Shown piece after piece: positions 20,260 to 49,266 of a stretch of 64,000 bases of DNA (positions within the stretch are counted from its first letter, which is position 1; every line of letters begins with the position of its first letter). This DNA comes from Verrucomicrobiota bacterium. GTDB taxonomy: Bacteria > Verrucomicrobiota > Verrucomicrobiia > Opitutales > Opitutaceae. The stretch is from NCBI GenBank assembly GCA_030605125.1, contig JAUWBD010000002.1, positions 13,179 through 77,178 on the forward strand, given 5' to 3'. The position numbers and the translations under genes are program-made. The notes under the pieces were generated by a model. It was given only the letters and a program-made list of their open reading frames with translations, did not search any database and had not been told where the DNA came from.

Positions 20260-23200
20260 TCAGCGCACGCGCAGCCGCAAAAACCGCGTCGGCGCCGTCA
20301 CCGTATCCGTCACGGTCACCGGGCCGGCCACGTTCTCCGCGCCGCTGCTGCTCCAGATCACGCTCCACGTCGCACCCGCGGCGAGCGAGCTGGTGGCCTC
20401 CACCTCATAGACGAGCGCCGGATCGGCGATGCGTTGAAAATTCAGCGTGAGACGTTCGCCCACCACCGACGCCGCGGGCGAGACCGTCGATCCATCCGCG
20501 CGCAAAGGATCCCCCCCGAGCGCATACTCGAGACGGTTCGGGAGCCCGTCGCCGTCCGGATCCGCGGTCGGGCCCGCGAGCGACTCGGCGGCGCCGCGGC
20601 CAAACCGCTCGTCGGTCCAGCGCTCGAACGGGCTGCGCGTGTCGGTGAGCGTGAGCACGATGCTCCCCGGCGCGATGGCGAAGCTTCCCGCCAGATAGGG
20701 CGTCGCGCTCGGCGGCGACCACTGGAGGTTCGGGTTGCCGGCAAGTGCGCCGGTGAAACTGAGCACGGTGTAGTCGCCCGCATCCAGCGCGCCGCCCAGA
20801 TCCTCGGCCACGACCGTGATGTTGCCGTTCAGCGTCGCGGCGCCCGCCAGCGCCGGGCCGCGCCGCCGCGCGGGCTCCACGCCCAGGGCGAGCCTCGCGC
20901 CGGAGGACAGGCTCACGGAGCCGCCCACCGCGCCCGGCCCGCCAAAGGTGGCGCCGCTCGCGACCGTGACCGCGGTGTTGCCCAGCGAACCGGTGACGAG
21001 CAGGCGCCCGGCGGACACGGTGGTGCTGCCCGTGTAGGTGTTGGCCCCGGCGAGCACCAGCCGGCCCGCGCCGGTTTTGGCGAGCGAGGTCGCCGCGTTG
21101 CCGTTGGTGATCGCGCCTGCGAAAACCGTGTCGGTGCCGCGCGCGCCGACGGTGTAGGCCACCGCGACGTTGTTTCCCGAACCCGATGCGCCCGACAACA
21201 CCGCGCCCGCCTCGCCGGAGAGCGAGCCGAGGGTGAAGGCCGTGCCGGAGCGGGCCGTGAGCGTGCGCGTGCCCAGATCGAAATCTGCGAGCGCCGAGCC
21301 TGAGCCGCCGAAGAAGCGGAAGGAGCCGACGCCGGCGAAGACCACCCGCCCCGCGAAGGAGGCGAGCGAGCCCTCGAGGTCGAAGACGCTGCTCGCATCG
21401 AGCGTGAGCACGCCCGCGCCGGAGACCGCGCGAATGCCGTGGTTGCCGCCCGAGTGGCCGCCCGAGATTTGCGCGACGCCGTCCACGATGATGGCGTTTT
21501 GCGGCGCGAGCGCGCCGGTCGCCCACACTCCGCCGCGCAAGGTCACGGCGCCGGTGCCGAGCGCCGAGGCGTGGCCGCTCGCCAGCACGCCCTCGTGCAG
21601 CGTGACGCCGCCGCCGTGGGTGTTGGCGTTGTGGATCGTGAGCGTGCCAGGGCCGCGCTTCACCAAGGCCGCCGCGCCGCCGAGCGAGCCCGTGCCGCCG
21701 AGCGCGCGCGGCTGCGAGATGTCCACCGTCAACGTGGACGGCGCGAGCGCGCCCGAGAGCTCGACGGTCGCGGTCGCGGAGCTGTCGTCGATCGTCACCG
21801 AGTCGCCGGTCACGAAGCTGATCGGCGTGCCGTCGTCGGCGCGCGCGAAGTTGACCGCGGCGCCGTCCCACACCGAGGAGACGGCGCCGGTCCAGCGCAC
21901 CGCGAGCGGTTCGCGCGGCGGCGGGACGGGGTCCGTCCGGATGTTCGGCATCGGCGGCGCGGCCATGCCGGCGCCGACGAAAAAACTCGGATGCGGCGGC
22001 TGGTTGTAGCCGACGTTTTGCCAGGCCAGCGCCACGCGATACTGCGGATCGTGCAGGAAGGTGCGGAGACGGTTGGTCGCGGGGATGGTCGTCGAGAAGA
22101 TCAGCAGCGCGGTGCTGTCGGCGTTGCGCCACACGACCTCCTCGCGCCAGTCGCCGAGGATGTCGCCGGATAGACCGGGCGTGTTTTTCGTGCCGTTGTT
22201 GGCCGTGGCGCCGTGCTGCCAGGCGGTGAGCAGATTGCTGCGGCCGGCGCTGAGGTGGTTCCACTTCGAGATCGTGGTGCCGTCGAGCAGCTCGCGCAGC
22301 GGGTCGGCGTCCCACCACACGCCGAAGTTGTAGAACATGTTCGAAGGCAGCGTGGCGATCACCTGCCCATCGGCGGCGTAGAGGTTGTTGTTGTTCGTCG
22401 CCCAGGCCTCGGCGCCGGGATAGCGCGGATCGATGTCCATCATCACGCCGCGGCCCACGTCGGCCGTGGCCGGCGTGGACCAGATGATCGCGCCGGTGGA
22501 GGCGTCGCGCAGCGCGGTGCCGATGCCGCCGTTCGAGCCGGGCGATTCGAAGGGCGAAAAAATCTCCTGCCCGGGCCGCGAGGGATCGAAGTCGGAAACG
22601 TGCAAGGCGTCCCCGTGGCCGAGCCTGCTGGTGTAGCGGCCGGTGCCGTCGGCGTTCACCGTCATCGCGCCGTAGATGATCTCCTGCCGCCCGTCGCCGT
22701 CCACGTCGGCGATCGAGAGCTGGTGGTTGCCCTGGCCGGCGTAGGTCGAGTTGTTGGCCGCGGAGAAGGTCCAGCGGCGTGTCAGGGCCCGGTCGCGCCA
22801 GTCCCACGCCACCAGGTGGGTCTGGGTGTAGTAGCCGCGCGCCATGATGAGCGAGGGCCGCTCGCCATCGAGGTAGGCGACGCCTGCCACGAAGCGGTCC
22901 ACGCGGTTGCCGTAGCTGTCGCCCCAGTCCGACACCGTGCCGCGCCCCGGCAGATAGGCGGTGGTGGCGAGCGCCCGGCCCGTGAGCCCGTCGAAGATCG
23001 TGAGGTATTCCGGGCCGGAGAGGATGTAGCCGCTTGAGTTGCGGTAATCGGCGCTCGCGCTGTCGCCCGCCATCAACACCGGGTCGCCGCGGCCGTCGAT
23101 CGTGCCGGGGGCGGTTTTCACCGCGAGCTCGGCGCGCCCGTCGCTGTCGAGATCGTAGGCGATGAACTGCGTGTAGTGCGCGCCGGCGCGGATGTTTCGC

Positions 23201-23829
23201 CCGAGGTCGATGCGCCAGAGCCGCGTGCCGTCGAGCTTGTAGCCGTCGAGCAGGACGTTGCCGGTGTAGCCGGACTGGGAGTTGTCCTTCGCGTTCGAGG
23301 GCTCCCACTTCACCACGAGGTCGAGCTCGCCATCGCCATCGAGATCGGCGGGCGCGAGGTCGTTGGCCGAGTAGGTGTAGCTCTCGCCGCTCGGCGTCAC
23401 GCCGCCCGGCGGCGGCTGGATCGGCACCGAGAGGAAAGGCTGCGCGGGCGCGTCGGGCGGAAGCGCGAAAGACGCCGACGCGGTCTGCTCCACCCCGCCG
23501 AGCACCGGACGCACAAAATAGGAGACGCCGGCGGCGAGCGCGGCCGAGCCAGGGGTGTCGCGGTAGTCGGTGGTCGTAGCCAGCGGCGAGGAGTTGAGCT
23601 TCACCGGGACGCCCCCACCGACCGAACGGTAGAGGTTGAACGCGATCGCGTCCGGATCGGTGCCGAGCATCCGCCAGCCCACGTGTGTAGTGGTGGCGCT
23701 AATACGGATGGCGACCACGCCCCGGCCGAGGTTCTCCATCCGCGCCTGCCCCCTGGCGAGGGCCGCGGCCAGCACGGAGAAGGAAAGCCAGAGGCAAAGC
23801 GACGCGAGGCGACGGCGTGGGGAAAACAT
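20260..23829 (-). CDS. PL11 rhamnogalacturonan lyase (paralog 2) + autotransporter-associated beta-strand repeats + conserved C-terminal domain
   Basis: PL11 motifs in the N-terminal ~640 aa; LVKRGPGTLTIHNANTHGGG and LAKTGAGRLVLAGANTYTGST repeats; DPDGDGLPNRLEYALG...TRFLRLRVR C-terminus. Confidence 0.9.
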   Translation of the reverse strand: MFSPRRRLASLCLWLSFSVLAAALARGQARMENLGRGVVAIRISATTTHVGWRMLGTDPDAIAFNLYRSVGGGVPVKLNSSPLATTTDYRDTPGSAALAAGVSYFVRPVLGGVEQTASASFALPPDAPAQPFLSVPIQPPPGGVTPSGESYTYSANDLAPADLDGDGELDLVVKWEPSNAKDNSQSGYTGNVLLDGYKLDGTRLWRIDLGRNIRAGAHYTQFIAYDLDSDGRAELAVKTAPGTIDGRGDPVLMAGDSASADYRNSSGYILSGPEYLTIFDGLTGRALATTAYLPGRGTVSDWGDSYGNRVDRFVAGVAYLDGERPSLIMARGYYTQTHLVAWDWRDRALTRRWTFSAANNSTYAGQGNHQLSIADVDGDGRQEIIYGAMTVNADGTGRYTSRLGHGDALHVSDFDPSRPGQEIFSPFESPGSNGGIGTALRDASTGAIIWSTPATADVGRGVMMDIDPRYPGAEAWATNNNNLYAADGQVIATLPSNMFYNFGVWWDADPLRELLDGTTISKWNHLSAGRSNLLTAWQHGATANNGTKNTPGLSGDILGDWREEVVWRNADSTALLIFSTTIPATNRLRTFLHDPQYRVALAWQNVGYNQPPHPSFFVGAGMAAPPMPNIRTDPVPPPREPLAVRWTGAVSSVWDGAAVNFARADDGTPISFVTGDSVTIDDSSATATVELSGALAPSTLTVDISQPRALGGTGSLGGAAALVKRGPGTLTIHNANTHGGGVTLHEGVLASGHASALGTGAVTLRGGVWATGALAPQNAIIVDGVAQISGGHSGGNHGIRAVSGAGVLTLDASSVFDLEGSLASFAGRVVFAGVGSFRFFGGSGSALADFDLGTRTLTARSGTAFTLGSLSGEAGAVLSGASGSGNNVAVAYTVGARGTDTVFAGAITNGNAATSLAKTGAGRLVLAGANTYTGSTTVSAGRLLVTGSLGNTAVTVASGATFGGPGAVGGSVSLSSGARLALGVEPARRRGPALAGAATLNGNITVVAEDLGGALDAGDYTVLSFTGALAGNPNLQWSPPSATPYLAGSFAIAPGSIVLTLTDTRSPFERWTDERFGRGAAESLAGPTADPDGDGLPNRLEYALGGDPLRADGSTVSPAASVVGERLTLNFQRIADPALVYEVEATSSLAAGATWSVIWSSSGAENVAGPVTVTDTVTAPTRFLRLRVR

Positions 23830-23893
23830 GGGGCGCGGGGAAGGGGTTGACGCCACACAGCCCGATCCCGCGCCCGCGCCAAGCCGGCCCGAT

Positions 23894-23906
23894 TATGACA
23901 GTAAGC
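23894..23906. promoter_or_regulatory. Operator-like palindrome (motif A)
   Basis: TATGAC-A-GTAAGC upstream of PL11 paralog 2. Confidence 0.45.
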
Positions 23907-24003: not shown

Positions 24004-24016
24004 TCTTACTGTCAGC
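24004..24016. promoter_or_regulatory. Operator-like palindrome (motif A)
   Basis: TCTTAC-T-GTCAGC upstream of the 24077 gene and the PEP-CTERM gene. Confidence 0.55.
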
Positions 24017-24076: not shown

Positions 24077-24463
24077 ATGCGCTTTCGTCTCTTCGCGCTT
24101 CTCTGCGCCTTCGCCCTTCCCGCGGTCGCCCAGACCACCTTCGTCAACCCCGCCAAGCCCGGCTCGCCCGAGGCCGCCACCGTCGGCAGCTTGGAAATCG
24201 CCCGCACCGGCAAGGAGGTCCTGCTCACCTGGACCCTGCCGGAGGGCGAGATTCGCATGATCGAGATCATGCGGCACACCAGCCCGCAGGCTCCCGGCCG
24301 CGGCCGTGTCGCCGGCGTCCGCCCCGAGCCGCCGATCTTCGCCGACACCGTGCCCGATGAGCAGGCGATCTACTGGTATTGGCTCAAGATCACCCGCCCC
24401 AACGGCCTGGTGCTCAACATCGGCCCCGTGCCCACGCCCGAGTCCTCCGTCTGGACGCCGTGA
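24077..24463 (+). CDS. Small secreted Fn3-like beta-sandwich protein
   Basis: Signal peptide MRFRLFALLCAFALPAVAQ; VLLTW..IEIMRHT..FADTVPD..YWYWLK pattern resembles Fn3-like accessory domains. Confidence 0.65.
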   Translation: MRFRLFALLCAFALPAVAQTTFVNPAKPGSPEAATVGSLEIARTGKEVLLTWTLPEGEIRMIEIMRHTSPQAPGRGRVAGVRPEPPIFADTVPDEQAIYWYWLKITRPNGLVLNIGPVPTPESSVWTP

Positions 24464-24519
24464 CCACCCGCCCGGCCGCGCCCCCTCTCTTCCGTCCTAG
24501 CATCAACCTCCACCACCCC

Positions 24520-26253
24520 ATGAACCCCGCGAAACACAACACGCACTCCCTCCGCCTCCGCAGCCGACTCGTCACCACGCTGGTCGTCGCGATGGCCGCC
24601 CAGGCGCACGCCGCCGACGGCACCTGGATCGGCACCACCGCCGGCAACTGGTCCGATACCGCCAACTGGACCGACGGCATCGTCGCAGGAGCGACGACCG
24701 GCACCACCAGCGCCGACATCGCGTCCTTCCCCGTCGGCTCCGCCATCGGCGCCGTCACCGTCGATGCCAATCGCAACATCTCCGGCATGACCATCAGCGG
24801 CTCGGTCGGCACGCCCGCCACACTCTCCTTCACCGGCGGCTCCTTCCTGCTCAGCAGCGGCGGCAAGATCGAGGCCACCTCCACCGGCGGCAACGTCACC
24901 ATCGGGACGCCGATGACGATCCAGGGCAACGGCGGCAGCTACACCCTCAGCACCAGCACCCCGGGCACTAACCGTAACTTCAACATCACCGCCGCCATCA
25001 GCGGCGTCTCGACCACAGGTAACACCACCACGCTCAACCTCGAGGGCACCTCCACCGCGCTCAACACAATCAGCGGCGTGATCAGCGACGGCACGGGTGG
25101 AGGTCGCCTCGCGGTCAACAAGTCCGGCACGGGCCAGTGGACCATCAACGGCGCCACCTTCACCGGCGGCCTCACCGTCACCGGCGGCACGATCCGCACG
25201 GCCAACTCCGGCAACACCTCGCTCCAGCTCGGCAGCGGCCAGATCACCTTGGACGGCGGCTCCCTCACGCTCGGCTCCACCGGCGCCACCAACCTCGACA
25301 ACGCGCTCTCGGTCGGCGCCGGCGGCGGCAACATCACCTTCCGCTCCAACCACAGCTTCAACCCCTCCGCCCTCACCGGCACCGGCACGCTCAATCTCTT
25401 CCACTCGAACAGCGCCGGCACCGTCATCACCACCAACGACCTGAGGGATTTCGCCGGCAACATCGCGCTCAACCAGAACGGCGCCAACAGCCTCGCGATC
25501 CGCCTGGGCAACACGGCCAACTACGCCTCCGGTCGCAACGCCGGCTTCATCCTCAACGCCAACACCTCGATCATCACGCAGGCCGGCACCAACGGGGCGT
25601 TTACCATCGAGCTCGGCGCGCTCTCCGGCGCGGCCGGCTCCTCCATCGGCGGCTCGGGCGCGGGCACCGGTATCTTCACCTACCAGATCGGCAACCGCGG
25701 CGAAAACACCACCTTCGCCGGCAACATCGTGAACGGCGGATCGCGCACCGGCCTCGCCAAGGTCGGCGCCGGCTCGCTCACGCTCACCGGCACCGGGCAT
25801 ACCTTCAACGGCGGCATCACGATCAACGGCGGCTCGATCGTGCTCGGCGGTAACGGCCTCCTGCCCGACGCCAACAACCTCGTGCTCGGCGGCGGCAAGC
25901 TCGACCTCGCCGGCTTCTCCGAGACGCTCGCCGACCTCAGCCTCGTGGCGGACACCGTCTCCACCATCGACTTCGGCGCCGGCGCCTCGACCTTCTTCGT
26001 CAACAGTGTCGTCGGCACCGGAGCGCTCTCCGTGCTCAACTGGACCTCCGGCTCCGATCTCTTCCGCGTGGGTGCCGATCCCACCGCGCTGCTCCCGCAG
26101 ATCACGATCAACGGCCTCGCCGCGCAGGCCTCGTTCAACGGCGGGCTCAACGTCTGGGAGCTAAGCGCCATCCCCGAGCCCTCCGCCTTCGCCGCCCTCG
26201 CCGGTCTCGGCGCCCTCGGCTGCGCCGCGCTCCGCCGCCGCCGCCGCGCCTGA
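24520..26253 (+). CDS. PEP-CTERM surface protein with autotransporter-associated beta-strand repeats
   Basis: Signal peptide; G/T/N/S-rich; NKSGTGQWT and AKVGAGSLTLTG repeats; C-terminal IPEPSAFAALAGLGALGCAALRRRRRA. Confidence 0.95.
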   Translation: MNPAKHNTHSLRLRSRLVTTLVVAMAAQAHAADGTWIGTTAGNWSDTANWTDGIVAGATTGTTSADIASFPVGSAIGAVTVDANRNISGMTISGSVGTPATLSFTGGSFLLSSGGKIEATSTGGNVTIGTPMTIQGNGGSYTLSTSTPGTNRNFNITAAISGVSTTGNTTTLNLEGTSTALNTISGVISDGTGGGRLAVNKSGTGQWTINGATFTGGLTVTGGTIRTANSGNTSLQLGSGQITLDGGSLTLGSTGATNLDNALSVGAGGGNITFRSNHSFNPSALTGTGTLNLFHSNSAGTVITTNDLRDFAGNIALNQNGANSLAIRLGNTANYASGRNAGFILNANTSIITQAGTNGAFTIELGALSGAAGSSIGGSGAGTGIFTYQIGNRGENTTFAGNIVNGGSRTGLAKVGAGSLTLTGTGHTFNGGITINGGSIVLGGNGLLPDANNLVLGGGKLDLAGFSETLADLSLVADTVSTIDFGAGASTFFVNSVVGTGALSVLNWTSGSDLFRVGADPTALLPQITINGLAAQASFNGGLNVWELSAIPEPSAFAALAGLGALGCAALRRRRRA

Positions 26254-26278
26254 GCCTCGCCCGTTTTTCGATTTGGTC

Positions 26279-26313
26279 AAAGAGCCCGCGTCGCGAGACG
26301 CGGGCTCTTTTTT
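26279..26313. terminator. Bidirectional intrinsic terminator
   Basis: AAAGAGCCCGCGTC-GCGA-GACGCGGGCTCTTT-TTT between convergent genes. Confidence 0.9.
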
Positions 26314-26314
26314 G

Positions 26315-27247
26315 TCAATTCGCCGCCGCCCGCCGCCCGGCCCGCGGCGTCGCCCGCAAGGCCGCCGGGTCCACCCGCGCGATCAGGCGCTTCACCTGCT
26401 CCTCCGGCCGCTCCTTGCCCGCCACCTGCGTGCGCCACTCGTTGGGATAAACCTTGAAGCGCCGCTTGAAAACCCGGCACAGGTCGCTCGCGCTGTTGAA
26501 ACCGCTGCGACGCGAGATCACGTCGAGCGTGTCGCCCGTGTTGGCCAGCAACTGCGCCGCGCGCTCCAGGCGCAGTTGCGTGAGCACGAGGTGCGGGCTC
26601 TTGCCGTAAACCAGGCGGAACTGGCGGCGTAGGTGCGCCACGGATACATGCACCACCTCCGCCAGCGCGTCGAGCGTGGGCCGCTCGTGCAGATGCGAGA
26701 GATACCACTCCGTCGCGCGCTCCACCCGCTCCACCGCGACCGTCTCGAGCGGAAGCGCCGCGCCAAAGTCCCTCCCCCGCAACAGCAGCAGGCTGAGGTC
26801 TATCAGCGCGCGATCGAAGAGCAGCAAAGAGGCTGGCGTCGGCGAGCGGTAGTGCGGCTCGATCGATTTGCCGAGCTGACGGACCATGTCCGCCTCCTCC
26901 GGCTCGAGCGCCATGCTCAGGTGCCCGTGCTCCGCGCAGGCCTCGCGGATCACGTCCGGCACCGTCGAGAAGTGAAAGACCGCGCGGTCGATCTTGCGTC
27001 GCGATTCCCAGCCGTGCGCGCGCTCCGGCGGGAAGACCCACAGCATCGGAGCGCGCTCGAACTTGCCCTCCTCGAAGCCCTCGCCCGTCGGTCGCAGCGA
27101 GCCTTTCAAGCAGGCGTAGAATTCCCAGTTGAAACGCGTCATCTCCGCCACCGGAGCGCTCGAGAGATCCTTTGGCCCGTGGGCAATATAGCGTAGCATG
27201 GGAGGGTAACTGCGCAGAATTCCGCCCGGTATGAGCGATTTTGTCAA
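26315..27247 (-). CDS. AraC-family transcriptional regulator (start may be 27199)
   Basis: RFNWEFY cupin; PTLDALAEVVHVSVAHLRRQF..GFNSASDLCRVFKRRFKVYP HTH pair. Confidence 0.9.
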   Translation of the reverse strand: MTKSLIPGGILRSYPPMLRYIAHGPKDLSSAPVAEMTRFNWEFYACLKGSLRPTGEGFEEGKFERAPMLWVFPPERAHGWESRRKIDRAVFHFSTVPDVIREACAEHGHLSMALEPEEADMVRQLGKSIEPHYRSPTPASLLLFDRALIDLSLLLLRGRDFGAALPLETVAVERVERATEWYLSHLHERPTLDALAEVVHVSVAHLRRQFRLVYGKSPHLVLTQLRLERAAQLLANTGDTLDVISRRSGFNSASDLCRVFKRRFKVYPNEWRTQVAGKERPEEQVKRLIARVDPAALRATPRAGRRAAAN

Positions 27248-27264
27248 TGAGAAGCGCGGCCCCC

Positions 27265-27301
27265 GCTCTTGGATACGTAGGCTCTTGGATGTTCTCTGGA
27301 C
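27265..27301 (+). promoter_or_regulatory. Direct repeats in the AraC/pilin-like divergent spacer
   Basis: GCTCTTGGAT at 27265-27274 and 27281-27290, partial TCTCTGGAC at 27293-27301. Confidence 0.4.
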
Positions 27302-27316
27302 GCATCCCCTAACAAC

Positions 27317-28030
27317 ATGTCCTCGACCCCTCGCCCCGTGTCCCTCCGCCCCGCCGCCGCCCGCTCCGGCTTCACCCTCATCGAGCTGCTTACGGTGATC
27401 GCCATCATCGGCATCCTCGCCGCCATTCTCATCCCCACCGTCGGCAAGGTCCGCAAGACCGCCAAGAGCGCGCAGTGTGCCTCAAATCTCCGCCAGTGGG
27501 GTCAAGCGATCAACCTCTACTCAAACGACAACAAGGGCACCTACTTTATCCAGGGCCGCTGGCCCGATCCGACATCACCAAACTCTCTCGGCTGGGCCTC
27601 CGCCGTTTCCGATCCGGAGTTATGGCCCTACGGCCGCTACCTCTCTGCATCCACCAACGCGTTCAACCTGCGTTTCTGTCCGCTCTACACGAAGCCCTTC
27701 ACTGGTAACAATCCGGTATCCTACGCCATCACGCGCCCGCGAACCGGCAACACGATAGCCCCCGACACCCGCAACGCACCCTTCCGGCAGATCCGCACGC
27801 CCTCGCAGTTTCTTCTCCTCATCGACAGCGATCCCGCGCTGATCTCCACCACCATCTGGGTCTCCAGCCTGAGCGACGCCAACGCTCGCGTGCTCCCCAC
27901 GCTCTCCAATGCCGAGGATGACCGTCACGAAGGCGGCCTCAACGCTCTCTTCGCCGACGGCCACGTGAAACGCCTCACCGCCGCCGACGTCATCGCCCGA
28001 GGCGACATGGCTTATCGCACCGACAACTGA
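27317..28030 (+). CDS. Prepilin-type N-terminal cleavage/methylation protein with C-terminal H-X9-DG motif
   Basis: SG|FTLIELLTVIAIIGILAAILIPTVGKVR (G-1, F+1, E+5), CASNLRQW, RH-EGGLNALFA-DGHVK. Confidence 0.93.
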   Translation: MSSTPRPVSLRPAAARSGFTLIELLTVIAIIGILAAILIPTVGKVRKTAKSAQCASNLRQWGQAINLYSNDNKGTYFIQGRWPDPTSPNSLGWASAVSDPELWPYGRYLSASTNAFNLRFCPLYTKPFTGNNPVSYAITRPRTGNTIAPDTRNAPFRQIRTPSQFLLLIDSDPALISTTIWVSSLSDANARVLPTLSNAEDDRHEGGLNALFADGHVKRLTAADVIARGDMAYRTDN

Positions 28031-28059
28031 TCCACGCCCGCTCCTCCCGCCACTCCATC

Positions 28060-28086
28060 GGCCGCCCCTCGCGGGGCGGCCTTTTT
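28060..28086 (+). terminator. Intrinsic terminator after the pilin-like gene
   Basis: GGCCGCCCC-TCGC-GGGGCGGCC-TTTTT. Confidence 0.85.
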
Positions 28087-28118
28087 GTTTTCCCGCTCCG
28101 CCGCGCCTTCCCGCCCCG

Positions 28119-29147
28119 CTACGCGCCTCCGCCCTTCACCGTCGGCCCGTCTACCCAGGCCGCCGGCAGGGTCGTCGTCATCGGCAGCTCCGGCGCGCCG
28201 CACTCGTGGCGCAGCACCTGCCCGATCAGCAGCTCGATGCCGCGCGCCCCGAGCAGCCTCGGTTGCAGGTCCAGGCCGGCGCAGGGTGCGGTGGTGTTCA
28301 TCACGTTGAGACAACAAAAGCCGTGAGTCTCCGGCACGCGCGCGCCCGCCTCCTCCATCCACGTCTTCACCTCGGGCGAGTGCGCCAGCACCACGTCGCA
28401 CTTCACCGTGCGAAACCACTGGGCGAAATCGCGCGGCCCGACCTCGCTCGCGACCAAGGGCGGCAGGCGGGTCATGCCGTCATGGTGGGTCTGATACGCG
28501 TGGTAGGCCGCCTCCCAGCGGTGCAACAAACGAGCGTCGTGCGCGGCGCCCAGCACCAGGCCGGGCCGCCGGTAGCCCAGCGCCCGCAATCGGTCCAGCG
28601 CGGTCAACATCGCGCGGTAGTGGTCGGGACAGATCGCATGCAGCCCGGGACGCTCGATCACGTAGTCGGAGTAGATTCCCGAAAAATGCGTCCAATCCAG
28701 CCGCGTCAGGTCCGGCGTCTCCTTCACCGGCAACAGAAAAATCCCGCCGATGCCGCGCGAGTGCAGGATCGTGTCGAGGCGCTCGAGCGAGAGGCCCGCC
28801 TTGCCCACCACGAAGACGTCCGCCTTGAAACCGAGCTCCTCCGCGCGCTTGGTCGCGCCCTTCGTCAGCTCCTTGTGGTAACGCGACGGGCCGGCCGGGC
28901 GCCCCTCCGGCCCGTCGAGATCGAGCACCGCCAGCACGCCGCGAAAGGTGCCGGCGCGCGAGCGGCGCATCTCCGACATCAGCGCGCCGGCGAGCGGGTT
29001 TCTCCGGTAGCCCAGCTCCCGCGCCACCTTCAGCACCTTGGCGCGTGTCGCCGGCTTCACCCGCGGACTCCCGCGCAGCGCCTCCGAAACGGTCGTGTGC
29101 GACAAATCGAGTTTCTGGGCGAGCTGGCGAAGCGAGGGGGCGGGCAT
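28119..29147 (-). CDS. LacI-family transcriptional regulator
   Basis: SLRQLAQKLDLSHTTVSEALRGSPRVKPATRAKVLKVARELGYRRN HTH plus sugar-binding-like C-terminus. Confidence 0.93.
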   Translation of the reverse strand: MPAPSLRQLAQKLDLSHTTVSEALRGSPRVKPATRAKVLKVARELGYRRNPLAGALMSEMRRSRAGTFRGVLAVLDLDGPEGRPAGPSRYHKELTKGATKRAEELGFKADVFVVGKAGLSLERLDTILHSRGIGGIFLLPVKETPDLTRLDWTHFSGIYSDYVIERPGLHAICPDHYRAMLTALDRLRALGYRRPGLVLGAAHDARLLHRWEAAYHAYQTHHDGMTRLPPLVASEVGPRDFAQWFRTVKCDVVLAHSPEVKTWMEEAGARVPETHGFCCLNVMNTTAPCAGLDLQPRLLGARGIELLIGQVLRHECGAPELPMTTTLPAAWVDGPTVKGGGA

Positions 29148-29161
29148 CGGGGCGGGGTTCG

Positions 29162-29174
29162 TCTTACTGTAAGA
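29162..29174. promoter_or_regulatory. Perfect palindrome of motif A at the lacI/oxidoreductase divergent promoter
   Basis: TCTTAC-T-GTAAGA, 15 bp upstream of the LacI ATG. Confidence 0.65.
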
Positions 29175-29255: not shown

Positions 29256-30506
29256 ATGCCCTCCACCCCCGGCTCCCGCCCGCCTCGTGTCGCCCTGATC
29301 GGCGTCAGCGGCTACGGCGGCATCTATCTCCAACTCGTCCGCGAGTCTCTCGCGCGCCGCGAAATCTCGCTCGTGGCCGCGGTCGTGATCAACCGCGAAC
29401 AGGTCCCCGAAATCGTCGCCGAGCTCCGCTCGGCGGGCGCCGCGATCTACGCCTCCACGGAAGAGTTCCTCTCCCACGAGTCCGGCCGGGTCGATCTGTG
29501 CCTGATCCCCGTGGGCATCCAGTGGCACGCGCGCCTCACCGTCGCCGCGCTCCGCGCCGGGATGAACGTGCTGGTGGAGAAGCCGCTCGCGGGCTCGGTC
29601 GAGGATGTCGCCGCGATCCGCCGCGCCGAGTCCGAGGCCGGCCGCTGGGTCGCCGTCGGTTTCCAGGACCTCTACGCGCTCGAGGCCCGTTGGCTGAAGA
29701 CGCGCCTCCTCGAAGGTGCCATCGGCCGCATCCAAGAGGTGCGCATGCTCGGCCTCTGGCCCCGCCCCCGCGCCTACTTCTCGCGCAACCACTGGGCCGG
29801 ACGCGTCACCGCCGACGGCGCCGCGGTCCTCGACTCGCCGCTGAACAACGCCTTCGCCCACTTCGTCAATCTCTGCCTCTTCTTCGCCGGCCCCTCCGAG
29901 CAGGAGTCCGCGTCGGCGCAAGTCGAGTCGGCCGAGCTTTTCCGCGCGCACGATATCGAGATGTTCGACACCGCCGTGGTCCGCGCGAGCGCCCCGGGCG
30001 GCCCGCGCTTCTGGTTTGGCGTCAGCCACGCCACCGCCGAGACCCGACAACCCGAGATCTCGATCCTCGGCTCCGAAGGCTCCGCCGAGTGGTGGCACGA
30101 GCAACGCTGCGTCATCCTCGACACCGCCGGCCATCGGCAGGTGTTCCCCCTGCCCTCCACCGAGGAGTCGCGGCAGCTCATGTTCTCCGCGGTCGTCGCG
30201 CGGCTCTCCGATCCCTCGGCCTTCGTTTGCACCACCGCGGTGGCCGAGCAACACACGCGGCTGATCGAGGGCGTCCAGCGAGCCGCGGGCGTGCGCGCCT
30301 TTGACGCCACCTCCGTGGACTGGACGCCGGACCTCTCCACCCGGAGCGAGATCCCCTCGGTGCGCGGGTTGGCCGAAGCGCTCGACCGCGCCTTCGTCGC
30401 CGGCTCCTCGCTCGCCGCCGCCGCTTCGGCGCCCGTGGCCCCCGCCGCGCCCGCCGTCACCGCCGCGCCCGCCCCGGTCGTCACCCGCCTCGCCGTCGCC
30501 TCATGA
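29256..30506 (+). CDS. Gfo/Idh/MocA oxidoreductase
   Basis: [28 protein letters not shown]. Confidence 0.88.
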
Positions 30507-30817
30507 TCCGCAAAGCATTTGTCATGTCCGTGCACCCCGGCCACGAGGCGGAATACGCCCGTCGCCACCAGCCCATCTGGCAGGAGCTGGCCGACGTGCT
30601 TCGCGCGCACGGCGTGCACAACTACTCGATCCACCTCCACCCGGAGACCCGCCAACTCTTCGCCTACGCCGAGATCGAGAGCGAGGAGCGCTGGCGGGCC
30701 ATCGCCGACACCGAGGTCTGCCGTCGCTGGTGGCGCCACATGGCCGACCTGATGCCGGCCAACCCCGACTCCAGTCCCGTCTCCACCTCGCTTGCCGAGG
30801 TCTTCCATTTGCCCTGA
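30503..30817 (+). CDS. rhaM: L-rhamnose mutarotase
   Basis: [43 protein letters not shown]. Confidence 0.93.
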
Positions 30818-30895
30818 GCTTTCCGCGCGGACCGCTTCCGCTCCGCGCGACTCTCCACCCCGTCCGTCCCACGCCTCGCGCGTGCCCGCCGCCCC

Positions 30896-33640
30896 ATGCC
30901 CCTCAGCCGTCGTTCCTTCGTCCGCGGAGGCGCCCTCGCCGCCGCCTCGCTGCCCCTCGCTTCGCTCCTCCGCGGTGCGAGCACGCCGCCACCCGCGCCG
31001 ACGGCGGCCCCCGCTTTGCCGCCCGATCCCGCCCGGCCCGATCGCGCCGTGCTGCGCTGGCTCGAGGGCGCGCCCGCCGACCACATCGGCTCGGCGCTTG
31101 GCGTGTCCTGGCGTCGCGGCGCCGTGCCCGCCGGCACCGGCTTTGCGCTCCAAGGCAAGGGCGGAGCCGGCATCCCCGTCCAGTCCTGGCCGCTTGCCAC
31201 CTGGCCCGACGGCTCGCTCAAGTGGACCGGCCACGCCCTCCCGGCCGGAGCCGATCTGCCGGAGAAACTTGAACTCATCCCGGGCCGCGAGCCCGCCCGC
31301 CCGTCGCGGCCCGTCGTCGTGCGCGAATCGCCCGACGCCGTGGAGATCGACACCGGCGTGATCCGTTGCGTCGTCCCCCGCCGCGGGCCGCACCTCGTCT
31401 CCTCGCTTCGCTGCGACGGAAGGGAAATCGCCCGCGCCGGCCGCCTCGTCTCGCTTCGCAAACCCTCGCCCGACCAGGAGACCCCGGCCGAGCGTTGCCA
31501 GGGGGAAACCCGTTCGCTCGTGGTCGAGCAGGCGGGCCCGGTGCGCGCCGTCGTGAAGCTCGAGGGCCGCCAACTCTCGCCCGACGGCCGCGCCTGGCTC
31601 CCCTTCACCGTCCGCCTCTACCTCCACGCCGGCGGAGACGCCGTGCGCGTCATGCACTCGTTCGTGTATGACGGCGACGAATACAAGGACTTCGTCGCCG
31701 GCCTCGGCCTGCGCTTCGAGGTGCCGCTGCCCGACGCCCCGCACGATCGCCACGTCCGCTTCGTCGGCGAGGAGGGCGGCGTCTTCGGCGAGGCCGTGCG
31801 CGGCATCACCGGCCTGCGCCGCGATCCCGGCGCCGAGGCCCGCGCGGCCCAGGTCGCCGGCCGCCCCACCCCGCCGCTCGCCGACTGGGCCCCGGCCGTC
31901 CGCGACCGGCTGCACCTCGTGCCCGCCTGGGGCGACTACACCCTCGCGCAGCTCTCCTGCGACGGCTTCGAGATCCGCAAGCGCACCGCCCCCGGCCACG
32001 CCTGGATCAAGGCCGCCGCGGGACGCCGCGCCGCCGGCCTTGGCTACGTCGGCGGCGTCTCGGGCGGCCTCGTCTTCGGTCTCCGCGACTTCTGGGAAAA
32101 ATATCCCGCGCAGCTCGACATTCGCTCCGCGCACACCGACACCGCCGAGGTCACCGCCTGGCTCTGGTCCCCCGAGGCCGCGCCGATGGATCTGCGTTTC
32201 TACCACGACGGCATGGGCATGGAGGACCACGCCGCCGAGCTCGCCGGCCTCGATATCACCTACGAGGACTACGAAAAGGGCTTCGGCACGCCCCACGGCA
32301 TCGCCCGCTCGCACGAGCTCGTCTTCCGCGCCGTCGCCGCCACCCCGGCGCGCGAGGAGTTCCCCCGCTTCGCGGAGTCGCTCCGCCGGCCGCCCCAGCT
32401 CGCCGCCTCGCCCGCCCATCACCTCGCCTCCGGCGTCTTCGGCGCCTGGGGCCTTCCCGACCGCTCCGACCCGCGCAAAGCCCGCCTCGAGGACCAGCTC
32501 GATTTCACGCTCGCCGCCTACCTCGGGCAGGTGGAGCAACGGCGCTGGTATGGCTTCTGGGACTACGGCGACGTCATGCACAGCTACGACGCCGACCGCC
32601 ACGAATGGCGCTACGACGTCGGCGGCTTCGCCTGGGCCAACTCCGAGCTCTCGCCCGACCTCTGGCTCTGGTATTCCTACCTCCGCTCCGGGCGGGCCGA
32701 TGTTTTCCGCCTCGCCGAGGCCATGACCCGCCACACCGGCGAGGTGGACGTCTATCACCTCGGCCGCTTCAAGGGCCTCGGCACCCGGCACAACGTCCAG
32801 CACTGGGGCTGCTCGGCCAAGCAGCTCCGCATCAGCACCGTCGCGTATCGGCGTTTCCACTACTTCCTCACCTCCGACGAGCGGACGGGCGACCTCATGC
32901 GCGAGCTGGTCGGCGCCGACGAGGCCTTCCTCACCCTCGATCCGATCCGCAAGATCCGCAAGGAGCCCCTGCCGCCCCCGCGCCGCGACGCCGCCTCGGT
33001 CGGCTTCGGCACCGACTGGGGCTCGCTCGCCTTCGCCTGGCTCACCGAATGGGAGCGCTCCGGCGACGCGCGCGCCCGCGACAAGCTCCTCGCCGGCATG
33101 CGCACCATCGGCGCGCAGCCGCGCGGCTTCCTCTCCAGCGGCGCGACCTTCAACCTCGACACCGGCGAGTTCTCCGTCGTCACCCACGACGAGATCGGCG
33201 TCTCGCACCTCAGCGCGGTCTTCGGTCTGCCCGAGCTCTGCGCCGAGCTCGACGCCCTCGTGGACGTGCCCGCGTTTCGCGAGGCCTGGCTGCAATACTG
33301 CCTGCTCTACAACGCTTCCCGCGAGGAGCAGCGCGCCGCCGTCGGCCGGGATTTTGGCCGGCTGAATCTCTGGGAGGCGCATTCGCGCCTGACCGCCTGG
33401 GCCGCCGCCAAAAAAGACGATCCCGCCCTCGCCCTCCGCGCCTGGAAGGAGTTCTACTCCGGACGTGCCGGCCATGGCGTGAAACCCGAGCTGAAATCCA
33501 CCCGCGTCTCCGGGCCCGCCGTCCTCAATCCCGTGGACGAGAGCTTCGCCCTCAACACCAACGCCACCTCGCAGTGGGGCCTCGCCGCCATCCAGATGCT
33601 CGCCCTCGTCGGCGACCGGATGCCGGCCGACGTCCGCTGA
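30896..33640 (+). CDS. Tat-exported exo-rhamnogalacturonan lyase (PL26/YetA-like)
   Basis: SRRSFV twin-arginine signal; WPDGSLKW, WYGFWDYGDVMH, WANSEL, MTRHTGEVDVYH, RHNVQHWGC. Confidence 0.85.
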   Translation: MPLSRRSFVRGGALAAASLPLASLLRGASTPPPAPTAAPALPPDPARPDRAVLRWLEGAPADHIGSALGVSWRRGAVPAGTGFALQGKGGAGIPVQSWPLATWPDGSLKWTGHALPAGADLPEKLELIPGREPARPSRPVVVRESPDAVEIDTGVIRCVVPRRGPHLVSSLRCDGREIARAGRLVSLRKPSPDQETPAERCQGETRSLVVEQAGPVRAVVKLEGRQLSPDGRAWLPFTVRLYLHAGGDAVRVMHSFVYDGDEYKDFVAGLGLRFEVPLPDAPHDRHVRFVGEEGGVFGEAVRGITGLRRDPGAEARAAQVAGRPTPPLADWAPAVRDRLHLVPAWGDYTLAQLSCDGFEIRKRTAPGHAWIKAAAGRRAAGLGYVGGVSGGLVFGLRDFWEKYPAQLDIRSAHTDTAEVTAWLWSPEAAPMDLRFYHDGMGMEDHAAELAGLDITYEDYEKGFGTPHGIARSHELVFRAVAATPAREEFPRFAESLRRPPQLAASPAHHLASGVFGAWGLPDRSDPRKARLEDQLDFTLAAYLGQVEQRRWYGFWDYGDVMHSYDADRHEWRYDVGGFAWANSELSPDLWLWYSYLRSGRADVFRLAEAMTRHTGEVDVYHLGRFKGLGTRHNVQHWGCSAKQLRISTVAYRRFHYFLTSDERTGDLMRELVGADEAFLTLDPIRKIRKEPLPPPRRDAASVGFGTDWGSLAFAWLTEWERSGDARARDKLLAGMRTIGAQPRGFLSSGATFNLDTGEFSVVTHDEIGVSHLSAVFGLPELCAELDALVDVPAFREAWLQYCLLYNASREEQRAAVGRDFGRLNLWEAHSRLTAWAAAKKDDPALALRAWKEFYSGRAGHGVKPELKSTRVSGPAVLNPVDESFALNTNATSQWGLAAIQMLALVGDRMPADVR

Positions 33641-33665
33641 CCGCCTTTCCCCTCGCACCCCTCCC

Positions 33666-36014
33666 ATGCGCTTTTTTGTCGTCTGCCTTCTTCTGCTCGG
33701 ATTCGCCGCCGCCGGCCAGGCGAAGCCCGGCGCCGAGCTGAGGCTCGCCCCGCTGCCCCCCGCCCCGGCCGACGCCTCGCTGCTCGCCTCCCACGGCCGG
33801 CAGGTCCTCGTCGTCGCCGGCGCGCGGGTCGCGCCGCTCGGCGCGCCCGCCTCTTCCGTCGAGTGGACCGAGGGCGCCCCGACCGTGCTCGCCCGCGCCT
33901 CCTCCGCGGAAGGCGTTTTCCTCGTCGCTCCCGATCGCGTCGTCCGCCTGTCCGCCGCGGCCAACGGCGCGCCGCCGACCGTGGCCCGCCTGCCCGATTT
34001 GCCCGGAGCGCCGCTCGCCGCGGACGCCGTCGTGGCCGCCGCCGTGCTCGGCAAGCGCCTCTACGTCGCCACCGGCTCCGGCTTCCACGGTCTCGATTTT
34101 TCCGCGGACGCGCCCGGCGCATGGGCGGCATTGCCCCCGGCCCCGTTGCCGCTCGGTCCGGGCTCCGCCCTCGTCGCGCAGCTCGACCAGCTCACGCTCT
34201 TCACGCCCTCCGGCACGCGCGCCTACCTGCCGCAGACCGGCTGGAAAAACCAGGCGCTCGCCGCGGCTCCCTTCGAGCTCGCCGCCGCGCCGGCCGCCGC
34301 GCGCTACGGCGCCGCGCACGTGTTTTTCTCCGACGCCGCCGCCACCCACGCCTACCACGTCCCGACCGATACCTGGGTCCGCCACGAGCTCGCGATCCCC
34401 GTGCCGCGATCCGCCGCGCCGCAGGGCGACGGCCTCGCGATCCTCGGCGCCGACGGCGCGCTCTCCTCGCTCGTCGCCGCGCCGCTGCCCACCGGCTACA
34501 ACTGGCTCGATCACGGCGTGGTCGCCACCTACCTGCTCGCGATGGTCGGCATGAGCCTCTGGTTCGCGCGCCGAAAGCAAAACGCGAACGACTACTTCCG
34601 CGGCGGAAACCGCATCCCGTGGTGGGTCTCGGGCATGAGCCTCTTCGCGACTTTCGCCAGCGCGATCAGCCTCATGGCCATGCCCGGCAAGGCCTTCTCC
34701 GGCGACTGGACCTACTACACCATCAGCCTTTTCGCGCTGCTCGTGCTGCCCGTCACGCTCTTCGTGCTCACGCCCTTCGTGCGGAGGCTCAACATCCCCA
34801 CGGCCAACGCCTACCTCGAGCGCCGCTTCGGCCTGCCCACCCGACTGCTCGGCAGCGTGATCGGCATCTTCACCACCAGCCTCGCGCGCCAGGGCTCCGT
34901 GCTCGTGCTACCCTCCATCGCGCTCTCCACCGTGATGGGCGTGCCGGTCGAGGCCTGCATCATCGTGATGGGCCTCGTCACCCTCGCCTACACCTTTTTC
35001 GGCGGTCTCTCCGCCGTCGTGTGGACCGACACCGTGCAAGGCTTCATCATGATCGGCGCCGTCGTCGGCTGCCTCCTGCTCGCCTGGTCGCGCCTCGACC
35101 TCGCGCCCGCCGAGGCCTGGCAGATTTTGCAACAGGGCGAGAAGCTCCGCGTCTTCGACTGGAACACCGACCTCACCTACCCGACCGCCTGGGTCTTCCT
35201 CATCACCACCGTCGTCTCCGTGCTCGGAGGCGTGGGCAACCAGGACTACATCCAGCGCGTGCAGTGCACGCCCTCGCTCCGCGACGCCCGCCTCGCCGTC
35301 GCCACGCAGCTGCTCGTCGCCGTGCCGCTCAACCTCCTCCTCTTCGGCCTCGGCACCGTGCTCTTCCTCTTCTACCAGCAAAGCCCCGCGTCGCTCAGCC
35401 CGGCGCTGAAGATCGACGGCATCTACCCCTTCTTCGTCGCGCAACAACTCCCGCCCGGCGTCTCCGGCCTGGTCGTCGCCGCGCTGCTCGCCGCCACGAT
35501 GTCCACCATCTCGAGCTGCAACTGCAGCGTCTCCGACATCGTCACCCAGGATTTCTACCGCCGCTTCAAGCCCGGCGCGCCCGACCGCTCGGTGTTGCTC
35601 TTCGGCCGCGTCGCCACGCTCGTCTCCGGCCTCGCCGGCATCGGCACCGCCCTCTGGATGGCCAACGCCACGCTCGGCTCGATGTGGGACCTCGCGATCA
35701 TGGTCACCAACCTCATCGGCAACGGCATCGTCGGCCTCTTCACGCTCGGGCTGCTCACCCGCCGCGCGCACCAGACCGGCGCGCTTGTCGGCGTCGCCGC
35801 CGGCATGGCCGTCGTCATCTGGCTGCAGAACCACAGCACGATCACCTTCTGGCTCTTCACCGCGATCGGCACCGCCGTGACCGTCGGCGTCGGCTACCTC
35901 GCCAGCCTGCTGCTGCCCGGCCGCACGCCCGCCCTCGCCGGGCTCACCTTTTACACCGTGAGGGAAAAACCGGTCCCCGCCGTCGAGGCCCCCGCCGTCA
36001 CCGTCGCGTCCTGA
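33666..36014 (+). CDS. Sodium:solute symporter with a ~270-aa N-terminal extracytoplasmic (Kelch-like) domain
   Basis: Signal peptide; DYFRGGNRIPWW, SLFATFASAIS, VVWTDTVQ, NQDYIQR, AATMSTISS; many transmembrane segments. Confidence 0.88.
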   Translation: MRFFVVCLLLLGFAAAGQAKPGAELRLAPLPPAPADASLLASHGRQVLVVAGARVAPLGAPASSVEWTEGAPTVLARASSAEGVFLVAPDRVVRLSAAANGAPPTVARLPDLPGAPLAADAVVAAAVLGKRLYVATGSGFHGLDFSADAPGAWAALPPAPLPLGPGSALVAQLDQLTLFTPSGTRAYLPQTGWKNQALAAAPFELAAAPAAARYGAAHVFFSDAAATHAYHVPTDTWVRHELAIPVPRSAAPQGDGLAILGADGALSSLVAAPLPTGYNWLDHGVVATYLLAMVGMSLWFARRKQNANDYFRGGNRIPWWVSGMSLFATFASAISLMAMPGKAFSGDWTYYTISLFALLVLPVTLFVLTPFVRRLNIPTANAYLERRFGLPTRLLGSVIGIFTTSLARQGSVLVLPSIALSTVMGVPVEACIIVMGLVTLAYTFFGGLSAVVWTDTVQGFIMIGAVVGCLLLAWSRLDLAPAEAWQILQQGEKLRVFDWNTDLTYPTAWVFLITTVVSVLGGVGNQDYIQRVQCTPSLRDARLAVATQLLVAVPLNLLLFGLGTVLFLFYQQSPASLSPALKIDGIYPFFVAQQLPPGVSGLVVAALLAATMSTISSCNCSVSDIVTQDFYRRFKPGAPDRSVLLFGRVATLVSGLAGIGTALWMANATLGSMWDLAIMVTNLIGNGIVGLFTLGLLTRRAHQTGALVGVAAGMAVVIWLQNHSTITFWLFTAIGTAVTVGVGYLASLLLPGRTPALAGLTFYTVREKPVPAVEAPAVTVAS

Positions 36015-49253: not shown

Positions 49254-49266
49254 TCTTACTGTTCGA
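49254..49266. promoter_or_regulatory. Operator-like palindrome (motif A)
   Basis: TCTTAC-T-GTTCGA upstream of the CE12 pair. Confidence 0.55.

Follow-up and report, generated by a model that had tools for sequence, protein, structure and literature searches.

Pilin-like proteins paired with surface binders as possible nutrient importers in a rhamnogalacturonan-I locus and a cobalamin operon of a verrucomicrobial genome

Bacteria of the Planctomycetes-Verrucomicrobia-Chlamydiae (PVC) group are major degraders of glycans in soils, lakes, oceans, and guts. They practice "selfish" uptake largely without the SusC/D proteins, and the passage of polysaccharides through their outer membrane is an open question. 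The question takes a concrete form in a 64-kb stretch of DNA from a member of the Verrucomicrobiota of Opitutaceae type, with relatives among Opitutaceae and Opitutales (C124:13179-77178, approximately 71% G+C; referred to here as the window), which holds a rhamnogalacturonan-I (RG-I) locus. In the middle of this locus, between positions 24,077 and 29,174, lie five genes that encode a small Fn3-like protein, a protein with PATR repeats and a PEP-CTERM anchor, an AraC-family regulator, a pilin-like protein with an H-X9-DG tail, and a LacI-family regulator. The H-X9-DG/DUF1559 family to which the pilin-like protein belongs is present in tens to hundreds of copies per genome, and the literature searched gives no function for DUF1559. 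What, then, might such a protein contribute at the center of a polysaccharide locus?

The answer favored here, with a probability put at roughly 45%, is that the locus provides, in the pilin-like protein, its own dedicated subunit for a shared type IV filament system, one that would serve in capture and uptake, as gene order and predicted folds would have it. The arrangement of genes suggests, more widely, that pairs of a pilin-like protein and a surface binder capture and import nutrients at the place where an outer-membrane transporter normally sits.

The best evidence comes from another contig of the same genome (4.88 Mb in 271 contigs, 95.7% complete), in the operon that follows its single cobalamin riboswitch (riboswitch C55:18538-18728; operon C55:18538-24379). 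With overlapping stops and starts, this operon encodes in reading order a DUF4465 protein with a PEP-CTERM anchor (280 residues), a secreted protein (402 residues), and a pilin-like paralogue (277 residues), and it continues with a BtuF-like binding protein, a FecCD permease, an ABC ATPase, and cobalamin salvage genes; apart from the leading trio, only import components and salvage genes are present. The pilin-like paralogue matches N_methyl and the start of DUF1559 and is without the H-X9-DG tail. DUF4465 domains have been found experimentally to bind vitamin B12 and usually accompany the TonB-dependent receptor BtuB (PMC13398666). A survey of 30 genomes of the same family found the riboswitch above cut-off in 12; the DNA downstream of 11 riboswitch sites was read and 10 loci were usable. 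In every usable locus the first gene after the riboswitch encodes a secreted protein of 620-656 residues, and all seven of these products that were scanned are TonB_dep_Rec and Plug proteins. Four of the loci have orthologues of this genome's BtuF, BtuC, and BtuD directly after the BtuB-type gene. None contains a pilin-like, DUF4465, or PEP-CTERM gene, and it is the absence of the expected pilin-like genes from all 11 sites that exposes the replacement of BtuB. The genome studied here has no BtuB orthologue, its best matches being partial (24-34% identity, at most 61 bits), while the BtuB proteins of the relatives are 30-67% identical to each other. A surface binder and a pilin-like protein thus occupy the slot that an outer-membrane importer holds in the relatives, an arrangement that, by analogy for the RG-I locus, favors uptake over secretion.

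The pilin-like protein of the window has the hallmarks of a filament subunit. Its prepilin signal, RSG/FTLIELLTVIAIIGILAAILIP, scores above cut-off with TIGR02532 (31.9 bits against 16.3) and PF07963 (27.9 against 21.2), and its tail reads H204-EGGLNALFA-D214-G215, so that the class III signal and H-X9-DG motif named in an earlier reading of this DNA (the sequence-only reading, made from the letters without database searches) are confirmed. Invariant among 116 homologues are F19, T20, L21, E23 (the glutamate at +5), the helix, C54, R59, C121, H204, and D214. A confident AlphaFold2 (AF2) model (mean predicted local distance difference test score, pLDDT, 91.8) has the form of a lollipop and predicts a 51-residue N-terminal helix (residues 21-71), an alpha/beta head, and the DG pair at the turn of a C-terminal hairpin. 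A sequence search of the PDB returned matches that cover pilin N-terminal helices only. The full-length DUF1559 profile (PF07596) was matched just under its cut-off (23.2 against 23.3 bits) and only at profile positions 244-262, and judged by sequence the protein is a short-headed relative. An identity as the pseudopilin GspG was rejected, TIGR01710 giving 35.8 bits against a cut-off of 88.85 with only model positions 1-56 of 134, the helix, aligned. Across 46 paralogues in the genome, identity is 84% over the first 28 residues of the mature protein and 23% over the rest, a combination of conserved helix and variable heads that fits the pattern expected for interchangeable heads on a common filament core.

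The machinery that such subunits would share is encoded entirely on other contigs and comprises 12 T2SSE-family ATPases, one prepilin peptidase (Peptidase_A24), four secretins, and three exosortases. No assembly genes of a type II secretion system (T2SS) or type IV pilus (T4P) were found on the contig of the window, in agreement with the sequence-only reading, which had seen none beside the pilin gene. TonB-dependent receptors number only 10 in the 4.9-Mb genome, with none on the window's contig, against approximately 87 LacI-like regulators, 39 AraC regulators, and approximately 87 PEP-CTERM proteins. The distant machinery, together with the genome-wide linkage described below, fits interchangeable subunits on one shared machine.

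A genome-wide test of whether pilin-like genes gather near genes for carbohydrate-active enzymes (CAZymes) had been proposed with the sequence-only reading, and its outcome was positive. The sets comprised 68 genes for pilin-like proteins, of which 47 belong to the FTLIELLTVIA type, together with 39 AraC genes, 87 LacI-like genes, and 90 PEP-CTERM candidates, about 87 of which look genuine, and observed counts were compared with 2000-3000 random draws. A LacI or AraC gene lies within three genes of a pilin-like gene in 34 of 68 cases (10.5 +/- 2.9 at random), a PEP-CTERM gene in 24 of 47 (5.6 +/- 2.2), and both in 13 of 47 (2.4 +/- 1.5); PEP-CTERM candidates directly adjoin a regulator gene in 30 of 90 cases (5.5 +/- 2.2). 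Paralogues of the window's 17 CAZymes, which served as the proxy for CAZymes, are found within six genes in 12 of 46 cases (3.8 +/- 1.8; p about 0.0003). All of these counts are minima, approximately 40% of the pilin-like genes being three genes or fewer from a contig end. A Pfam tally of the immediate neighbors yields LacI, GntR, and AraC regulators, GH5, CBM9, beta-helix proteins, GH38, GH16, alginate lyase, and sulfatase, and many further neighbors are small secreted proteins without a family. The linkage extends, on small counts, to 80 loci in other genomes, mostly of Opitutales: LacI genes occur there at 5.3 per 100 kb at distances up to 1 kb from a pilin-like gene and at 0.3-1.3 per 100 kb when 5-10 kb away, and AraC and PEP-CTERM genes likewise become sparser with distance.

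Relatives that keep the pilin gene of the window also tend to keep its neighbors. Orthologues of 58-60% identity stand in a block that reads Gfo <- LacI -> <- AraC pilin -> and then a GH106 rhamnosidase gene. Three such loci (L126, L127, and L128) keep AraC at 66-67% identity, LacI (69-72%) and Gfo (61-62%) are retained in L126 and L128, and L128 runs on into GH106. AraC orthologues of 66-71% identity always adjoin a pilin orthologue, and the divergent AraC/pilin pairing is kept in six loci. Further away, L134 (pilin 44%) combines Pec_lyase, a 1545-residue PATR protein, RhaM, Gfo, LacI, AraC, and pilin genes; L047 (44%) has the pilin gene, a gene for an 810-residue protein, Gfo, a PcRGLX-like protein (63%), and a symporter homologue; L048 and L053 share GDSL esterases and LacI, with GH115 and a PL22-like protein in addition in L048; and L049, L050, and L052 have a PATR protein of 1200-1325 residues after the pilin. 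The proposal that the pilin tracks its substrate thus holds for the closest orthologues, which stay with rhamnose and RG-I genes, and fails for some homologues at 45-49% identity, not all of which are orthologues.

Two observations were made in passing on these loci. The pilin gene of L134 is followed by a gene for a 1200-residue protein (L134:10930-14529); its N-terminal part gives a weak match to the minor pseudopilin GspK (E 1.5e-5), and the protein may, from its sequence, be a giant tip subunit. Metagenome bins labeled "Akkermansia" (L046, L048, L049, L050, L053, L062, and others) carry Opitutales-like pilin loci; the G+C content of the first five is 67-69%, and their labels look wrong.

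The candidate surface partner in the window is the PATR/PEP-CTERM protein. Its anchor, IPEPSAFAALAGLGALGCAALRRRRRA, scores above cut-off with PF07589 (23.9 bits against 20.7) and TIGR02595 (17.2 against 16), and three Exosortase_EpsH genes are present in the genome. The AF2 model (pLDDT 82.8; 26 homologues) predicts one long all-beta helix and a C-terminal transmembrane helix, with a disordered linker between the two at residues 524-555. The best match in the PDB is 7JVI (E 1.7e-3), with self-associating adhesins of the Ag43 type next, and lyase folds appear only at E > 1. The 7JVI structure is CBM89 from a capybara metagenome, a non-catalytic beta-helix module that binds xylan (PMC8810776). 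It is reasonable, on the predicted fold, to regard the protein as a non-catalytic binder or adhesin; a cryptic active site is conceivable. Pfam and NCBIfam profile searches of all five gene products turned up no catalytic domain, which bears out, together with the fold searches, the description of them as enzyme-free within an RG-I cluster of CAZymes. The small protein encoded upstream has no Pfam match; a weak NCBIfam match to the N-terminal part of the pectate lyase PelI (E 9.8e-6) fits its naming as Fn3-like. Its 11 homologues (48-80% identity) are all unnamed, and the three contexts seen were a lyase gene with a PATR gene, PATR genes, and a LacI/GH2 sugar locus. On the P0125 contig the order lyase <- -> Fn3-like -> PATR is as here, the Fn3-like orthologue (58%) standing between a PL11-PATR lyase and a 559-residue PATR protein.

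This conservation divides the segment in two. The sequence-only reading had described a single five-gene cassette bounded by two clean terminators, but both terminators (Table 1) lie inside the segment, after the PEP-CTERM and pilin genes, and relatives keep two separate modules. The five genes form at least three transcription units, and the segment is here treated as module A (the lyase, Fn3-like, and PATR/PEP-CTERM genes) beside module B (AraC, pilin, LacI, Gfo, and RhaM onward). Start codons in module B were set inward of the open frames: that of AraC extends to 27247, and orthologues begin MLRY... (MLRYLASG in L052); that of LacI extends to 29201, and orthologues of 69-80% identity begin at the same residues (MPxPSLRQ...). 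The LacI protein matches PF00356 with 35.9 bits, and the match to its sugar-binding core is weak (Peripla_BP_1, E 0.0086).

Regulation may nevertheless tie the two modules together. When CTTACNGTAAG was searched with up to two mismatches, the window gave 9 matches against 1.16 +/- 1.19 in 100 shuffles of it, none of which reached 9, and all sites are intergenic or just ahead of genes. Genome-wide, 9 of 11 near-perfect copies are intergenic, though the genome is 88% coding, and the element GGTCTTACAGT(A/T)AGA is kept at the same place ahead of lacI in L126, L128, L134, and L052. The CTTACTGTAAG/CTTACNGTAAG sites probably serve as the operator of LacI in an RG-I regulon to which module A belongs, and their positions suggest a single LacI-type regulon that extends over 34 kb or more of the locus. 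The claim that a "motif A" stands at both ends of the segment agrees with the sites at 23895, 24005, and 29163, and the two motifs are most likely, not certainly, the same. The spacer shared by the AraC and pilin genes, a divergent pair as the sequence-only reading had said, has no CTTACNGTAAG-like site; it has conserved elements of its own, among them TTGACA at 27241-27246 on the AraC strand and a block that reads CTTGG(A/T). A second candidate operator, TTTGTCAAT (26311 and 27240), was rejected as not enriched, with 3 matches that 18 of 100 shuffles equal, and its copy at 27240 is the conserved TTGACA on the AraC strand, probably a -35 box. TTGGTCA heptamers number 7 in the window against 2.1 expected, only one of them, beside a terminator, lying within the segment, and a general repeat search of 23.8-29.3 kb returned PATR coding repeats and weak chance pairs only.

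Profile searches identify the surroundings as an RG-I locus. Its lyases are three of PL11, one each of PL4 and PL10 (Pec_lyase), a PcRGLX-like protein, and an oligogalacturonate-lyase-like protein; its hydrolases are three of GH43, a GH51-type arabinofuranosidase, GH42, and GH35; and three GDSL esterases, RhaM (L-rhamnose mutarotase), a Gfo/Idh/MocA oxidoreductase, and a sodium:solute symporter complete the set. Among the genes scanned, from 4.9 to 51 kb of the window, none matches TonB_dep_Rec, Plug, or SusD; the sequence-only reading had placed the non-catalytic genes where SusC/D would be expected. The nearest PL11 lyase gene, which carries PATR repeats, is transcribed divergently from the Fn3-like gene.

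Several features of the locus stand by themselves. The symporter (33666-36014, + strand) is extended at its N-terminus by approximately 300 residues that match no family and begin like a signal peptide. Inside the operon of secreted pectin enzymes lies a gene for an ABC half-transporter of the exporter type (ABC_membrane and ABC_tran; 38335-40074, + strand). Large secreted proteins share a conserved domain at the C-terminus, with the tail "...PRRFLRLRV"; approximately 36 genes genome-wide encode it, those of the divergent PL11-PATR lyase (- strand) and of a PL4-PATR lyase (45596-49231, + strand) among them. This domain looks like an undescribed sorting or anchoring domain, and its enrichment near pilin-like genes is weak (6 against 2.2 +/- 1.4).

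Table 1. Features of the segment and of the surrounding locus (window coordinates)
Feature	Position	Strand	Evidence or remark
CTTACNGTAAG-like sites	15297 and 15347 (to 15357)	.	ahead of first PL11 gene
PL11 rhamnogalacturonan lyase with PATR repeats and C-terminal "...RFLRLRVR" domain	20260..23856	-	Pfam RGL11_C 8.6e-231, RGI_lyase, PATR
Motif sites, lyase/Fn3-like divergent promoter	23895-23905 CTTACTGTCAT (-); 24005-24015 CTTACTGTCAG	.	motif search
Small secreted Fn3-like protein, 128 residues from ATG 24077, signal peptide MRFRLFALLCAFALPAVAQ	24077..24463	+	weak NCBIfam match
Protein with PATR repeats and PEP-CTERM anchor (IPEPSAF...RRRRRA), 578 residues	24517..26253	+	PATR 27.2 bits
Strong hairpin terminator, AAGAGCCCGCGTC-GCGA-GACGCGGGCTCTT and T run	26280..26313	.	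between convergent PEP-CTERM and AraC genes
AraC-family regulator, likely start ATG 27199 (MLRYIAHG...)	26315..27199	-	HTH_18 4e-21
Divergent AraC/pilin control region, 117 bp	27200..27316	.	conserved blocks in L126, L127, L128, L134, L052
Pilin-like protein, 237 residues, RSG/FTLIELL class III signal, H-X9-DG tail	27317..28030	+	TIGR04294 26.8 bits (cut-off 19)
Clean intrinsic terminator, 9 G-C pairs and TTTTTGTTTT	28060..28090	+	after pilin gene
LacI-family regulator, likely start ATG 29147 (MPAPSLRQLAQ...)	28119..29147	-	LacI HTH 6.6e-9
Perfect palindrome CTTACTGTAAG	29163..29173	.	16 bp upstream of lacI, 83 bp upstream of Gfo gene
Downstream operon: Gfo/Idh/MocA oxidoreductase, L-rhamnose mutarotase, PcRGLX-like protein, sodium:solute symporter	29256..36014	+	under lacI-side promoter
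CTTACNGTAAG-like site	49255-49265	.	ahead of GDSL esterase gene

Taken together, these elements would make the segment the control and capture center of an RG-I utilization locus, with its two modules side by side. LacI probably binds the CTTACNGTAAG operators at its own promoter, the lyase/Fn3-like promoter, and two further promoters of the locus, and AraC probably activates the pilin gene from the region that the two genes share. The PATR protein of module A, a candidate binder of pectin, would be sorted through the PEP-CTERM/exosortase route, probably to the surface of the cell. Cleavage of the pilin-like protein would fall to the single prepilin peptidase of the genome, and the near-invariant N-terminal helix of the protein, with glutamate at +5, would allow assembly into a type IV filament, a pseudopilus like those of T2SS or T4P, the motor and secretin of which come from genes on other contigs; the variable head would confer on the shared machine its specificity for RG-I. 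Pilin and surface binder together may then capture fragments of RG-I and carry them across the outer membrane, a step that SusC/D or a TonB-dependent receptor performs elsewhere. The sequence-only reading had raised both binding or uptake through shared machinery and a role in sensing. The former is partly supported, by the distant machinery and genome-wide linkage and, through analogy, by the B12 operon; the latter is without specific support.

Several points weigh against capture and uptake. The argument from the B12 operon is an analogy that passes through a paralogue without the H-X9-DG tail; the operon's exported proteins must themselves be secreted, so that a role in secretion would explain the linkage as well; and the ~4% of the genome that is missing could contain a BtuB gene. 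The head of the window's pilin-like protein has no PDB fold match better than E = 1 in a Foldseek search (the best being the pilin FimA), and fold comparison reveals no recognizable sugar-binding site in it. The pilin homologues P0016, P0022, and P0025 (45-49%) are found amid housekeeping genes, the closest PATR homologue (P0134) amid unrelated genes, and on the P0125 contig module A stands without module B, no AraC or LacI gene being called after the PATR gene, which is followed by a gene for 221 residues without a Pfam match. The 3850 genes on which the genome-wide counts rest were, in addition, called by ourselves with a codon-usage model, and the pilin-like, regulator, and PEP-CTERM sets were defined by our own iterated hidden Markov models and motifs.

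The strongest competitor, though rather unlikely, makes the pilin-like protein a secretion adaptor, that is, a cargo-specific T2SS pseudopilin that helps to move the large surface proteins and enzymes of its locus, such as PATR lyases and PEP-CTERM proteins, out across the outer membrane and has no role in import. T2SS pseudopili are the known use of such subunits, and the N-terminus matches GspG and GspH models, but the TIGR01710 match covers the N-terminal helix only and falls far under its cut-off. Genes downstream of pilin-like genes are co-directional in 37 of 45 cases, with a median gap of 76 bp, and often encode secreted proteins; exported proteins of 800-1300 residues adjoin pilin-like genes in relatives, one orthologue precedes the 1200-residue protein with a GspK-like N-terminus, and the B12 operon, too, has its two exported proteins. 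Against this, we know of no T2SS that requires a different pseudopilin for each cargo. The B12 trio, moreover, stands in the relatives' BtuB slot with no BtuB left, and a role in export alone would give B12 no way across the outer membrane.

Import of another kind is proposed by an explanation that we consider improbable, in which the protein forms an inner-membrane-anchored or short periplasmic structure, comparable to a bindosome, that hands oligosaccharides to inner-membrane transporters. DUF1559 is labeled a solute-binding family by Pfam (SBP_bac_10) and in PMC2754498, although an experimental basis for this label was not found in the literature searched. The pilin-like gene of the B12 operon stands directly ahead of BtuF and an ABC importer, and the symporter gene lies 5.6 kb downstream in the window; transporters are, however, rare among 85 immediate neighbors of 47 paralogues (one SSF protein and a few ABC binding proteins), and a periplasmic binder of the BtuF type is already present in the B12 operon. 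The invariant glutamate at +5 and the nearly identical N-terminal helices are instead indicative of subunits packed in a filament.

Very improbable is the absence of any specific link, with large mobile paralogue families serving general surface or biofilm roles and sugar loci merely making up much of the accessory genome. PEP-CTERM proteins are said to have been first tied, by Haft et al. in 2006, to exopolysaccharide and biofilm formation. Several of the 45-49% homologues stand in housekeeping contexts, and 11 of 47 paralogues have no regulator or PEP-CTERM gene within three genes, but the 3- to 5-fold enrichments exceed all 2000-3000 random draws. The AraC/pilin/LacI/Gfo block is, moreover, kept at 58-72% protein identity with conserved promoter elements, the pilin diverges approximately as fast as its regulators, which implies purifying selection in place, and one paralogue is under the riboswitch of a nutrient-import operon. 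Hardly credible, finally, is a sensor in which the pilin-like protein would work outside the cytoplasm as the sensing partner of AraC or LacI and signal extracellular pectin to them. The divergent AraC pairing is kept in six loci and regulators are the commonest neighbors of the family, but AraC and LacI, as soluble proteins of the cytoplasm that bind ligands, require no partner in the membrane, and all that the pilin-like protein has on the cytoplasmic side is a short leader, predicted to be removed. The paralogue of the B12 operon, moreover, is under a riboswitch with no protein regulator nearby.

Extended beyond this locus, capture and uptake by a shared filament leads to a more tentative proposal, possible though somewhat doubtful, in which H-X9-DG/DUF1559 proteins and their PEP-CTERM/PATR partners would constitute a modular, TonB-independent system of outer-membrane import, with one shared type IV filament and substrate-specific local heads for RG-I, for dozens of glycans, and for B12 in place of a lost BtuB. 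If true, it would explain polymer uptake without SusC/D in Verrucomicrobiota, Planctomycetota, and Lentisphaerota and give a role to a very large family. If the idea of uptake is wrong, the linkage of regulator, pilin, and PEP-CTERM genes needs another explanation, most likely cargo-specific secretion.

The proposal can be set beside several known systems. The H-X9-DG (TIGR04294)/DUF1559 (PF07596) family of Planctomycetota, Verrucomicrobiota, and Lentisphaerota shares with the window's protein, which is a member, the leader, the FTLIELL...IAIIGIL helix, and the tail, and counts dozens of paralogues per genome. Planctopirus limnophila has 68 such paralogues, two of them essential (PMC10632474), and the family is described in further work (PMC4807772; PMC2754498), its function being given as unknown throughout. 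What is added here is the context of regulators, PEP-CTERM/PATR proteins, and CAZymes, the tracking with RG-I genes, and a paralogue at the place of BtuB. Competence pseudopili, which bring DNA through a secretin, employ the same kind of subunit with glutamate at +5, prepilin peptidase, ATPases, and secretins, and share the inward movement proposed here; the system proposed here would differ in its glycan or B12 cargo, in its dozens of subunits encoded in loci of their own away from the machinery, and in its PEP-CTERM partner.

Polysaccharide utilization loci (PULs) of Bacteroidota are likewise substrate-specific and have their own regulators, non-catalytic surface binders, exported enzymes, and an inner-membrane transporter. 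In contrast, the locus described here contains no SusC, SusD, or TonB-dependent receptor, its surface anchors are of the PEP-CTERM and not the lipoprotein type, and a pilin-like gene stands at the place of the transporter. Type IV pilin-like proteins tied to one insoluble polysaccharide include CbpC/GP25 of Ruminococcus albus (cellulose) and the chitin-regulated pilus of Vibrio cholerae; those are major pilins that build a dedicated attachment pilus, whereas here there are tens of heads on a common core, each with a regulator and surface partner of its own, and import is indicated. The bindosome of the archaeon Sulfolobus solfataricus, an organism without an outer membrane, consists of sugar-binding proteins with class III signals and depends on the T4P-like Bas assembly. 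The likeness lies in nutrient-acquisition proteins that have pilin-type leaders and depend on pilin processing and assembly. The bindosome's binders are ABC substrate-binding proteins encoded with ABC transporters, whereas the head here is small, alpha/beta, and novel, and no ABC importer adjoins the window's pilin gene, although one paralogue does precede BtuF/FecCD/ABC genes.

Closest in spirit is the "fishing-rod" hypothesis for planctomycetes, in which pili-like fibers bind dextran, whole polysaccharides reach the periplasm, and pilin-like rods have been proposed (Boedeker et al. 2017, PMC5394234; review, PMC12078418). That hypothesis assigned no genes and concerned Planctomycetes and their crateriform structures, whereas the present analysis puts forward candidate genes in a verrucomicrobial pectin locus. 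The RG-I locus and the B12 operon would together give the "fishing-rod" idea its named genes, a pilin-like gene with a surface binder for every substrate and, in the case of B12, a replacement for BtuB.

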